From: Escherichia coli
Lineage (GTDB): Bacteria > Pseudomonadota > Gammaproteobacteria > Enterobacterales > Enterobacteriaceae
Assembly: GCF_045037415.1 (NCBI RefSeq)
Contig: NZ_CP173438.1
Direction: 5' to 3' (one strand)
DNA length: 64,000 nt
Shown one piece after another: positions 14,801 through 17,214 of the stretch. Positions within the stretch are counted from its first letter, which is position 1, and the number at the start of each line of letters is the position of its first letter. Made by a program: the position numbers.

Positions 14801-17214
14801 CCATGATCTTCGAACCCTTTTTTCAGGGAAGCCACCAGCGAAAAGGGGCGGTGAAGGGCAGCGGTCTGGGATTAAGCATTGCCAGGGATTGTATTCGCCG
14901 TATGCAAGGGGAACTGTATCTGGTCGACGAGAGCGGGCAAGACGTTTGTTTCCGCATTGAATTACCGTCGTCGAAAAACACGAAATAATGCTAACAGCCC
15001 ATCCCATCAGGCTATTTTATTTGTCAGTTCGGCCCCGGGCAGTGCTCGAAATCTTCACGTACGACATGTACGCTCCGGTTTCTCCGCGCTGTCCATGTCC
15101 AAACTGCCTGCAACAATTACGCCCACTGGGATAGGCTTTAAGTCTGGTGAATATGCGACACATTTTTCAACGATTATTGCCCCGACGGCTGTGGCTGGCA
15201 GGGCTGCCATGTCTGGCATTGCTGGGTTGCGTGCAGAGTCACAATAGGCCAGCCATTGATACGCCAGCAGAAGAAAAAATTCCGGTTTATCAACTGGCTG
15301 ACTATCTTTCTACTGAATGTAGCGACATCTGGGCGCTGCAAGGTAAATCAACCGAAACCAATCCGCTTTACTGGCTGCGGGCGATGGATTGTGCTGATCG
15401 TTTAATGCCTGCGCAGTCGCGTCAGCAAGCCCGCCAATATGACGACGGCAACTGGCAAAATACCTTTAAACAAGGGATTTTGCTCGCCGACGCCAAAATT
15501 ACGCCGTATGAGCGCCGCCAGCTGGTCGCGCGCATTGATGCGCTAAGTACCGAGATCCCGGCACAGGTTCGCCCACTGTATCAACTTTGGCGCGACGGTC
15601 AGGCGCTGCAACTGCAACTGGCGGAAGAGCGCCAACGCTACAGCAAACTCCAGCAGTCCAGCGACAGCGAGCTGGATACTTTGCGCCAGCAACATCACGT
15701 TCTACAACAGCAACTGGAACTCACTACTCGCAAGCTGGAAAACCTGACCGATATTGAACGCCAGCTCTCGACCCGCAAACCGGCTGGAAATTTCTCGCCG
15801 GATACGCCGCACGAGAGTGAAAAGCCCGCGCCATCCACCGATGAGGTCACTCCTGATGAGCCATAAACCTGCGCATTTATTACTGGTCGATGACGATCCG
15901 GGATTGCTGAAACTGCTTGGCCTGCGTCTGACCAGCGAAGGCTACAGTGTGGTCACGGCGGAAAGTGGTGCTGAAGGATTGCGGGTACTGAATCGCGAAA
16001 AAGTAGATTTAGTCATCAGCGACCTGCGGATGGATGAAATGGACGGTATGCAGCTGTTTGCTGAAATCCAGAAAGTGCAGCCGGGAATGCCAGTAATTAT
16101 TCTTACCGCGCATGGTTCTATTCCTGATGCCGTTGCTGCAACACAGCAGGGCGTGTTCAGTTTTCTCACCAAGCCTGTCGATAAAGATGCGCTATATCAG
16201 GCAATTGACGATGCGCTGGAACAATCCGCGCCAGCCACCGACGAACGTTGGCGCGAGGCGATTGTCACCCGCAGCCCGCTGATGCTGCGCTTGCTGGAAC
16301 AGGCGCGGCTGGTGGCACAATCAGACGTTAGCGTTTTGATTAACGGCCAGAGCGGCACCGGGAAAGAGATTTTCGCCCAGGCTATCCACAACGCCAGCCC
16401 GCGCAACAGCAAGCCATTTATTGCTATTAACTGTGGCGCATTACCCGAGCAATTGCTGGAGTCGGAGCTGTTTGGTCATGCACGTGGCGCGTTTACTGGC
16501 GCTGTCAGCAATCGCGAAGGTTTATTCCAGGCGGCGGAAGGCGGTACGCTATTTCTTGATGAGATTGGCGATATGCCTGCACCGTTGCAGGTCAAACTGC
16601 TGCGCGTGTTGCAGGAGCGTAAAGTGCGCCCGCTGGGCAGTAACCGCGATATTGATATTGACGTGCGGATTATTTCCGCCACTCACCGCGACCTGCCAAA
16701 AGCGATGGCGCGTGGGGAATTCCGTGAAGATCTTTATTACCGCCTCAATGTTGTCAGCCTGAAAATTCCGGCACTGGCGGAGCGCACAGAAGACATTCCG
16801 CTACTGGCAAATCACCTGTTGCGCCAGGCGGCAGAGCGACATAAACCGTTTGTCCGCGCGTTCTCCACCGATGCAATGAAACGCCTGATGACTGCAAGCT
16901 GGCCGGGCAACGTGCGCCAGTTGGTCAACGTGATTGAACAGTGTGTGGCGCTGACCTCATCTCCGGTAATTAGTGATGCGCTGGTGGAGCAGGCGCTGGA
17001 GGGTGAAAATACGGCGCTGCCAACCTTTGTTGAGGCACGTAATCAGTTTGAACTCAACTATTTGCGTAAGCTGCTGCAAATCACCAAAGGCAACGTCACC
17101 CACGCGGCGAGAATGGCGGGGCGCAACCGGACAGAATTTTATAAACTGCTTTCCCGAAACGAGCTGGATGCAAACGATTTCAAGGAATGAATTGGCGTTA
17201 TGTGTTACGTTTAG

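Follow-up and report, generated by a model that had tools for sequence, protein, structure and literature searches.

Probable translational coupling and non-ATG initiation in E. coli

At the compact stop/start junctions of polycistronic operons, a ribosome ending the upstream gene could reinitiate at the adjoining start, a Shine-Dalgarno (SD) sequence within the end of the upstream gene would help termination-reinitiation, and a free ribosome could also start de novo at the same SD. Among E. coli unidirectional gene pairs, Huber et al. 2023 (PMC10666635) place 24% of 2,987 at distances of -8 to +6 nt, a range that they take to predict efficient reinitiation; distances of -4, -1 and -8 are the commonest according to the literature. 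Of five overlapping pairs from E. coli that Huber et al. tested, four showed strict coupling; they also describe de novo initiation for one E. coli -4 pair, bioBF, and, at +14 nt, a drop in reinitiation by 40-80%. Coupling by reinitiation is established for rnc/era, and era translation depends on rnc (review PMC10582724). As for initiation codons, ATG, GTG and TTG account for 83, 14 and 3% of E. coli starts, respectively.

The window, that is, the whole 64-kb stretch of DNA analysed here, is a segment of an E. coli chromosome with the gene order lepB-rnc-era ... der-sinH. A 4-kb test stretch showed 100% identity with E. coli SK1144 (NZ_AP018784.2) and, over the full 64 kb, the window differs from this strain by three SNPs and by a 13-bp stretch in hscA that is absent from SK1144. 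The RefSeq models were placed on the window, and the junctions were compared with them nucleotide by nucleotide, using the curated models of K-12 MG1655 as a second annotation reference; gene lengths and boundaries of the genes with flagged junctions or starts are the same in K-12 MG1655 and in the window (for yphE/yphD, see below). Conservation was evaluated in a set of 80 Enterobacteriaceae loci, with the usable number varying for each gene or junction, SD strength was scored as duplex energy in kcal/mol, and experimental start data were taken from published sources (TRAINSPOTTER Table S1, INRI-seq Table S3 and the TetRP supplements).

Frequency of tight junctions and non-ATG starts

The original prediction described overlapping or abutting gene boundaries and non-ATG starts as frequent in this region. 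Only 5 of the 41 co-directional pairs of the window are spaced at -8 to +6 nt, versus 9.7 expected (binomial P(X≤5) = 0.054), and the start codons of its 55 genes are 49 ATG, 2 GTG and 4 TTG, so that there are fewer non-ATG starts (6 of 55) than the 9.4 expected from a 17% share. TTG is mildly over-represented (4 versus 1.65 expected, P = 0.08) and GTG under-represented. Both proportions are thus below the published E. coli baselines, and we rejected an enrichment of either feature. The coordinates and codons given in the prediction were all correct, as were its six non-ATG starts and the coupling of rnc/era; what did not stand was the idea of an unusual frequency and the inclusion of hscB/hscA among the tight junctions. 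Together, these features are already known and very probably represent ordinary, already annotated E. coli operon architecture (probability of about 0.9), which we support below with observed coordinates, conservation, deletion history and start-codon identities. The chief value of the analysis is therefore one of quality control, in that the annotation of the region is sound.

Co-directional junctions

The co-directional junctions other than qseG/glrR are as follows:

1255-1258, + strand: rnc/era, ATGA stop/start overlap (-4), in RefSeq and K-12
3641-3645, + strand: pdxJ/acpS, TAATG stop/start overlap (-1), in RefSeq and K-12
27666-27667, + strand: site of a 4-bp deletion (TGTG) in the alignment to K-12
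27692-27699, + strand: yphE TGA (27692-27694), 2-nt gap, yphD ATG (27697-27699)
40257-40278, + strand: hscB TAA, 16-nt spacer (40260-40275) containing GGAAG, hscA ATG; also 16 nt in K-12
42124-42130, + strand: hscA/fdx, TAA-T-ATG (+1 nt), SD GAGG at 42118-42121; also +1 in K-12
51439-51444, + strand: yfhM/pbpC, TAAATG, 0-nt spacer; distance 0 in K-12

The rnc/era, pdxJ/acpS, yphE/yphD and yfhM/pbpC junctions are all present in the window as had been predicted. The -4 overlap of rnc/era, for which the predicted coupling agrees with the literature, is kept in 61 of 62 loci; the single outlier, at -117 (locus L013), was discarded, since its contig carries era broken across three frames, an artefact of assembly. 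The -1 overlap of pdxJ/acpS occurs in 68 of 68 loci, and published data include an AcpS N-terminal peptide confirming the acpS ATG at this junction. No SD was detectable for pbpC (duplex energy +0.4 kcal/mol); the COG pair yfhM/pbpC appears as a syntenic pair in the cross-species tables of Huber et al.

The 2-nt gap of yphE/yphD contrasts with a 24-nt spacer in K-12. The TGTG deletion moves the yphE frame beyond the ancestral TGA to produce the +2 junction with yphD, and 543 of 5,426 E. coli genomes (10%) have this allele; as judged from the alignment, the tight gap is a by-product of this 4-bp deletion. The hscB/hscA pair, listed in the prediction among the overlapping or abutting junctions, has instead a 16-nt spacer and, at +16, falls in the distance range where Huber et al. 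measured the 40-80% drop in reinitiation (at +14 nt). The near-abutting pair of that operon is hscA/fdx, which had been overlooked.

The pairs of the window resemble those coupled by TeRe (Huber et al. 2019, 2023; rnc/era) in that they are co-directional and in one operon, in that the stop codon overlaps or adjoins the next start codon (ATGA, TAATG, TAAATG, TAA-N-ATG), and in that the SD lies in the upstream gene's 3' end and these junctions are conserved across genera. They differ in the cases of hscB/hscA (+16) and of yphE/yphD in its ancestral form (+24), outside the efficient range, and of qseG/glrR, whose distance of -11 is beyond -8 to +6 and belongs to the rarer class of long overlaps (-8, -11, -14). 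Besides rnc/era, we reasonably infer coupling at pdxJ/acpS, yfhM/pbpC, hscA/fdx and qseG/glrR.

The qseG/glrR overlap

Two features define this junction:

15843-15846, + strand: glrR SD core GAGG, within the 3' tail of qseG, spacer of 9 nt before the ATG (-6.3 kcal/mol)
15856-15866, + strand: qseG/glrR 11-nt overlap (ATGAGCCATAA), in the RefSeq models, K-12 and Huber Table S2 (-11)

The predicted 11-bp overlap is thus confirmed. Genes qseG (15153-15866) and glrR (15856-17190) are adjacent and co-directional, both on the + strand, and are described in the literature as part of one polycistronic transcript. The glrR ATG occupies positions 15856-15858 and the qseG stop TAA, at 15864-15866, is within glrR codons 3-4 (CAT AAA). 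A 60-nt query spanning the junction matched 5,422 of 5,426 E. coli genomes with at least 95% identity.

We rejected an alternative glrR start at the in-frame ATG at 15841, five codons upstream, which lacks an SD (-0.1 kcal/mol) and is not kept even within Escherichia, where locus L006 has GTG; alignments suggest that, outside this genus, its equivalent is out of frame by a 1-nt length difference. We also rejected a glrR start masked by structure: folding of 100 nt around the junction did not surpass that of shuffled sequences (z = +0.79), with no RNA structure over the start. With regard to a possible programmed QseG-GlrR frameshift fusion, no slippery heptamer was seen by eye in the overlap, and the qseG and glrR frames were fused in no lineage among the loci compared.

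Genes qseG and glrR overlap in 67 of 67 loci, by 1 to 58 nt, with distances of -4 (39 loci), -14 (9), -1 (7), -11 (5, exclusively Escherichia), -8 (5) and -58 (2); thus, 46 of the 67 are at -4 or -1. The alignment also indicates that Escherichia is exactly 1 nt shorter from the SD to an AGCC.TAAACC anchor, and Citrobacter sp. NCU1 retains a tandem-start state, ATGATG. From these comparisons, the -11 overlap is specific to Escherichia and derives from an ancestral ATGA by a 1-nt deletion. What this lineage lost is the A of the former glrR ATG; this destroyed the old start, and the start therefore shifted one codon downstream, onto a codon reading ATG here but ATA in relatives. The same deletion put the qseG TGA out of frame, so that qseG now ends at the next stop, the TAA in glrR codons 3-4. 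Putting the lost A back into the junction, as in CCATGATG, would recreate the -4 overlap. Klebsiella and E. cloacae show independent 1-nt losses leading to -14 and using the same TAA.

Overlap length drifts (1, 4, 8, 11, 14 and 58 nt) because both protein ends are outside conserved domains: the Pfam domain of QseG extends to residue 217 of 237, and that of the GlrR receiver begins at residue 9. While length drifts, the overlap as such and the internal SD persist. The junction thus provides a clean natural case of conversion of ATGA into a longer overlap of another frame class by a single-base deletion. The backup stop inside glrR catches the shifted qseG, which fits the published model, where the persistence of -8/-11/-14 overlaps is put down to the impossibility of distances of -2 and -5. 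In practical terms, 3' tagging or deletion of qseG should consider that the glrR SD and first four codons sit inside this gene.

A serious possibility, although one that we favour less than the reading set out above, is that the tight junctions, including qseG/glrR, are neutral by-products of compaction and indel drift, with glrR translated essentially de novo from its own SD. The variation in overlap length among genera by 1-nt indels, in codons outside the conserved domains of both proteins, agrees with this, and yphE/yphD exemplifies how an indel alone can make a tight junction. A good glrR SD is present in 67 of 67 loci, at -16 to -6 and within a qseG tail that is otherwise unconserved, with no occluding RNA structure, and bioBF shows that an overlapping pair can initiate de novo. 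Moreover, in Escherichia the junction is outside the TeRe distance range, and published abundances (around 11 molecules per cell for QseG and 36 for QseF, with QseE undetectable) place QseF at approximately three times QseG; this ratio hints that coupling is not strictly 1:1 and speaks for some de novo initiation. Against neutrality, the overlap is kept in each of the 67 loci and a positive spacer occurs in none, although indels were recurrent, which is unexpected under free drift in both directions, and strict coupling predominated in the set of overlapping E. coli pairs that Huber et al. tested.

Non-ATG starts

The six non-ATG starts are the following:

6091-6093, + strand: pgpC TTG, SD GAGGAG upstream (-8.6 kcal/mol), no other upstream start
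6784-6786, + strand: tadA TTG, SD GGAG upstream; TetRP peak, conservation and domain start
8838-8840, - strand: mltF TTG, in-frame TAA directly upstream
13561-13563, + strand: glrK (qseE) TTG, weak SD (GAGAG); conservation and alignments to residue 1
58186-58188, + strand: hisS GTG; N-terminal peptides, in agreement with the K-12 model
59478-59480, + strand: yfgM GTG, strong SD (AAGGAAGGAGAAGGA; -8.8 kcal/mol); N-terminal peptide

All six codons hold up as initiators, as was predicted, according to RefSeq, K-12 and either experimental data or conservation. Published initiation-site mapping, the check that the prediction had proposed, exists for the three starts of hisS, yfgM and tadA and agrees with them. 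For hisS there are N-terminal peptides MAKNIQAIR and AKNIQAIR, and for yfgM the peptide MEIYENENDQVEAVKR, both genes with additional Ribo-RET and INRI-seq support (TRAINSPOTTER Table S1). Tetracycline ribosome profiling (TetRP) places the tadA initiation peak at the TTG 33 nt downstream of the ATG annotated in 2006, which corresponds to position 6751 of the window. The start codon of tadA is TTG in 65 and GTG in 14 of the 79 loci, with the upstream ATG in only 31, and its deaminase domain begins at residue 8.

For pgpC, mltF and glrK, which have no entry in the TRAINSPOTTER table or the TetRP supplements, the TTG starts are supported by conservation in 68-78 loci, ORF logic and domain boundaries, the initiator position being conserved and no in-frame ATG alternative being so; any other start is missing, has no SD or would truncate a domain. 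The start of pgpC is TTG in 76 and GTG in 2 of 78 loci, after repair of one-codon alignment shifts, with an in-frame TAA one codon upstream in most of them; its sole ATG, 21 codons downstream, would truncate the protein because the HAD domain begins at residue 9. In mltF (TTG in 73 of 78 loci and CTG in 5, all from the K. oxytoca group), the frame is not open upstream, and a further candidate start comes only 44 codons downstream, beyond the signal-like N-terminus. Among 68 loci, glrK starts with TTG in 58 and with GTG in 10; protein alignments extend to residue 1 in all of these loci, and the ATG at +15 is missing in many genera. Its published transcription start site is 25 bp upstream of the start codon, and we rejected starts at TTG 13498/13501, which are upstream of this site, in the tail of the glmY terminator.

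These starts resemble those of other E. coli genes initiated by GUG or UUG: Met initiation is demonstrated by peptides for hisS and yfgM, a near-cognate codon follows an SD, and TTG and GTG are swapped among orthologues. There is no difference in kind, and the sole peculiarity is a local one, namely that TTG begins four genes out of five in a row (pgpC, tadA, mltF and glrK, with purL between the last two). Across these four genes, 303 orthologous starts comprise 272 TTG, 26 GTG, 5 CTG and no ATG, in a raw count that ignores kinship, while the control genes rnc, pdxJ and acpS remain ATG across loci.

We consider it unlikely that, beyond ordinary annotated starts, some genes use two starts yielding alternative N-terminal proteoforms, such as an MltF without signal peptide (TTG 8708) or a longer QseG. 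INRI-seq Table S3 lists in-frame peaks, each in two samples, at a TTG 132 nt downstream of the mltF start (peak 8.8), which has an SD of -5.7 kcal/mol, and at a CTG at -9 of qseG (peak 22.7), and alternative starts make up around 15% of mapped E. coli initiation sites (TRAINSPOTTER). However, the peaks are weak and exclusive to the in vitro assay, with the in vivo Ribo-RET column showing 0/FALSE for both, and the TRAINSPOTTER data contain no peptides for either.

The four TTG starts, all from genes for low-abundance proteins, appear to be held as weak starts, putatively by selection. It is decidedly improbable, in our view, that selection rather than chance preserves this series of UUG starts and that, along with it, the qseG/glrR overlap would be kept at any length to tie GlrR synthesis to that of QseG. 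If so, IF3-sensitive weak starts would keep these low-copy genes at low translation, and the four UUG genes could respond jointly to conditions of initiation fidelity. Three of the four TTG genes have a cell-envelope role, PgpC in phospholipid, MltF in murein and GlrK in the GlmY/GlmS pathway.

Least probable of all, and hardly credible, is that at least one of the six non-ATG starts is misannotated in place of a nearby in-frame ATG: such ATGs occur in tadA (6751 or 6817), glrK (13606), hisS (58216) and pgpC (6154), and the tadA model was itself revised away from an upstream ATG, but these candidates all lack an SD (duplex energy about 0), the hisS and yfgM peptides begin at GTG and the tadA TetRP peak is at TTG, the glrK +15 and tadA -11 ATGs are missing in many genera whereas the TTG/GTG position is invariant, the pgpC +21 ATG would cut off the start of the HAD domain, and mltF has an in-frame stop directly upstream and no ATG within 45 codons.

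Convergent overlaps

Two convergent gene pairs also overlap, as predicted:

7284-7287, convergent: tadA/mltF, TTAA, overlap of just the two stop codons
32677-32685, convergent: hcaT/csiE, 9-nt overlap (TCATGCTGA), identical in K-12

Both resemble other convergent overlaps of 3' gene ends, tadA/mltF involving only the stops and hcaT/csiE 9 nt, but tadA/mltF differs in being kept in only a subset of genera, with distances varying from -119 to +143 nt and beyond among 79 loci. Since it is not conserved, this overlap is probably incidental and does not imply a function. In hcaT/csiE, each stop codon covers the third-from-last sense codon of the partner gene.

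Gene junctions

All the features considered here are already annotated in RefSeq and in K-12; coupling of rnc and era is textbook knowledge, and the starts of hisS, yfgM and tadA have been mapped by experiment. Our additions, a reconstruction of how an 11-nt overlap arose from ATGA and a count of no ATG among 303 starts, are small and unsurprising.

In sequence searches, the 4-kb stretch around qseG/glrR matched many E. coli chromosomes at 100% identity. Over the whole 64 kb, the nearest RefSeq record, SK1144 (NZ_AP018784.2, 1295991-1359990), differs by 3 SNPs and a 13-bp deletion in hscA (position ~9654 of the fetched locus L002, window ~41654); owing to this deletion, the hscA of SK1144 is annotated as a frameshifted pseudogene, while the gene is intact in the window (616 aa). 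The RefSeq models transferred onto the window gave 55 starts within it, with every frame intact, and 55 neighbouring gene pairs (41 co-directional, 7 convergent and 7 divergent). Lengths and boundaries agree with curated K-12 MG1655 for all genes concerned, except yphE. Base-level comparison with these models showed that every junction coordinate in the original prediction was correct.

Junctions and spacers in the window
1255-1258, rnc/era, ATGA
3641-3645, pdxJ/acpS, TAATG
7284-7287, tadA/mltF, convergent, shared TTAA (just the two stop codons)
15856-15866, plus strand, qseG/glrR, shared bases
32677-32685, hcaT/csiE, convergent, shared bases
yphE/yphD, 2-nt spacer
yfhM/pbpC, abutting, TAAATG
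2161-2171, era/recO, 11-nt spacer
2901-2911, recO/pdxJ, 11-nt spacer
29823-29833, yphC/yphB, 11-nt spacer
42464-42474, fdx/iscX, 11-nt spacer
60099-60108, yfgM/bamB, 10-nt spacer

The pair hscB/hscA had also been listed as tight, but its spacer is 16 nt; within the isc operon, hscA/fdx (TAA T ATG, 42124-42130), omitted from that list, forms the tight junction. Four pairs should not be taken as coupling design. The hscB/hscA spacer falls in the range of reinitiation loss, since reinitiation is down 40-80% at +14 nt (Huber et al. 2023, PMC10666635). The yphE/yphD spacer is 24 nt in K-12; relative to K-12, a 4-bp deletion (TGTG) at window 27666-27667, at the yphE 3' end, carries the frame past the yphE TGA, extending YphE from 503 to 509 aa through the Shine-Dalgarno (SD) sequence of yphD, and this allele occurs in 543 of 5,426 complete E. 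coli genomes. The convergent tadA/mltF distance varies across genera from -119 to +143 nt (negative values denoting overlap) and up to kilobases. Lastly, hcaT/csiE has an identical 9-nt overlap in K-12.

Origin of the qseG/glrR overlap

The two genes overlap in all 67 loci compared, by 4 nt (39 loci), 14 (9), 1 (7), 11 (5), 8 (5) or 58 nt (2), and the five loci with -11 are all Escherichia. A published tabulation of E. coli gene pairs gives -11 for qseG/glrR, and a 60-nt query spanning the junction found matches of at least 95% identity in 5,422 of 5,426 E. coli genomes.

We traced the origin of the -11 overlap by aligning representative junctions. Salmonella and most Citrobacter carry GAGGTAACGCC ATG ATA AGC CGT AAA, where the qseG stop is the TGA within ATGA; Citrobacter sp. 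NCU1 has a tandem pair of starts, ATG ATG; and Escherichia has GAGGTCACTCC-TG ATG AGC CAT AAA, shorter by exactly one base. Loss of this A removed the old glrR start and shifted the qseG frame, leaving its TGA out of frame, and qseG now terminates at the TAA made by glrR codons 3-4. In Klebsiella and E. cloacae, a different single-base loss led to the same terminal TAA, giving -14. According to Huber et al. (PMC10666635), overlaps of -8, -11 and -14 persist because -2 and -5, which shortening would give, are impossible. With the QseG domain extending to residue 217 of 237 and the receiver domain of GlrR (QseF) beginning at residue 9, the shared bases encode tails that fall outside the domains of the two proteins. 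The SD core is present at -16 to -6 in 67/67 loci, within an otherwise unconserved qseG tail, and folding of the junction RNA revealed no significant structure.

Translational coupling

The predicted rnc/era coupling is established in the literature and proceeds by reinitiation. As judged from the sequence, reinitiation most likely also couples pdxJ/acpS, yfhM/pbpC, hscA/fdx and qseG/glrR. The pdxJ/acpS junction is conserved in 68/68 loci and the AcpS N-terminus has been confirmed; no SD was detected for pbpC. At qseG/glrR, a mix of reinitiation and de novo initiation would be expected: the terminating ribosome would sit 8-11 nt beyond the glrR ATG and need to move backwards, and the conserved, unstructured SD should permit de novo initiation as well. 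The reported copies per cell, 11 QseG and 36 QseF, argue against strict 1:1 coupling.

Non-ATG starts

All six proposed non-ATG starts agree with the mapped gene models, and published initiation data for three of them place initiation at the proposed codon. TRAINSPOTTER N-terminomics identified the GTG starts of yfgM (peptide MEIYENENDQVEAVKR) and hisS (MAKNIQAIR and AKNIQAIR), both also supported by Ribo-RET and INRI-seq, and the flanking sequences in its table are those of the window. Tetracycline ribosome profiling places the tadA start (product MSEVEFSHEYW...) at the TTG located 33 nt 3' of the ATG annotated in 2006 (window 6751), which lacks an SD.

The starts of pgpC, mltF and glrK were evaluated by comparing 80 Enterobacteriaceae loci fetched around mltF. 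The pgpC start codon is TTG in 76 of 78 loci and GTG in two, GAGGAG is kept 5' of it, and in the majority of loci TAA occurs in frame one codon 5' of the start; the HAD domain starts at residue 9, so that the sole ATG, at +21 codons, would cut into this domain. The mltF TTG (73/78 loci) directly follows an in-frame TAA, and the next candidate appears only after 44 codons. In the K. oxytoca group (loci L059, L062, L064, L068 and L073) this position is CTG and the open frame extends 27 codons in the 5' direction, as far as an ATG (peptide MPL...); initiation in this clade is either at the CTG or at a start relocated upstream. For glrK (qseE), with 58 TTG and 10 GTG (n=68), protein alignments extend to residue 1 in 68/68 loci, the ATG at +15 is absent from many genera, the in-frame upstream TTGs fall inside the glmY terminator tail, and transcription has been reported to begin 25 bp 5' of the start codon.

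Together, the four TTG genes comprise 303 orthologous starts, in a raw count that ignores kinship: 272 TTG, 26 GTG, 5 CTG and 0 ATG. In the same loci, the ATG of rnc, pdxJ and acpS is invariant. This kinship-blind count suggests that weak starts are maintained in the four genes, since initiator codons swap, yet none is upgraded to ATG.

TTG starts occur in four of five consecutive genes (window 6091-13563: pgpC, 6091; tadA, 6784; mltF, 8840, minus strand; glrK, 13561), purL, between mltF and glrK, being the only one with ATG; by a post hoc estimate at 3% TTG, ~0.017 such runs (at least 4 in 5) are expected per genome. INRI-seq Table S3 lists weak in vitro peaks at two in-frame codons, neither with an in vivo Ribo-RET peak: a TTG at +132 nt of mltF (window 8706-8708, minus strand, codon +44), whose use would produce an MltF lacking the signal sequence, and a CTG at -9 nt of qseG (window 15144-15146).

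Frequency against the E. coli background

Tight junctions and non-ATG starts had been called frequent, but comparison with published E. coli baselines revealed no excess over chance. Among 2,987 unidirectional E. coli pairs, 707 (24%) are at -8 to +6 nt and 203 (7%) at +9 to +12 nt (Huber et al. 2023, PMC10666635); the 41 pairs in the window include 5 at -8 to +6 nt (9.7 expected, P(X<=5)=0.054) and 5 at +9 to +12 nt (2.8 expected, P=0.14). The four 11-nt spacers and the 10-nt spacer fit the E. coli-specific '+10/11 nt' peak of the same study. The window has 49 ATG, 2 GTG and 4 TTG starts, against 83/14/3% among E. coli genes, with total non-ATG below expectation, TTG slightly high (1.65 expected, P=0.08) and GTG low (7.7 expected, P=0.012).

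Other local features

RNA elements (Rfam) and shortened intergenic regions
418-632, rncO
4044-4120, minus strand, OhsC
13319-13466, GlmY
37569-37678, iscRS stability element
44934-45238, minus strand, RyfA, carrying the timP toxin ORF
58075-58166, SroE, ending 20 nt short of the hisS GTG
20407-20469, glyA-yphH intergenic, 63 bp (197 bp in K-12)
36810-37079, trmJ-iscR intergenic, 270 bp (451 bp in K-12)
42676-42733, iscX-pepB intergenic, 58 bp (177 bp in K-12)

Relative to K-12, the three intergenic regions are shorter by 119-181 bp and may lack repeat elements found there. Between yphA and hcaT (window 31176-31546), the phenylpropionate genes hcaR-hcaEFCBD found there in K-12 are missing; hcaT is kept without the catabolic genes. 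The intimin-like inverse autotransporter gene sinH starts 3' of a yfgJ-like zinc-ribbon gene (window 63361-64000), where in K-12 yfgJ instead adjoins xseA, with a 4-bp convergent overlap.
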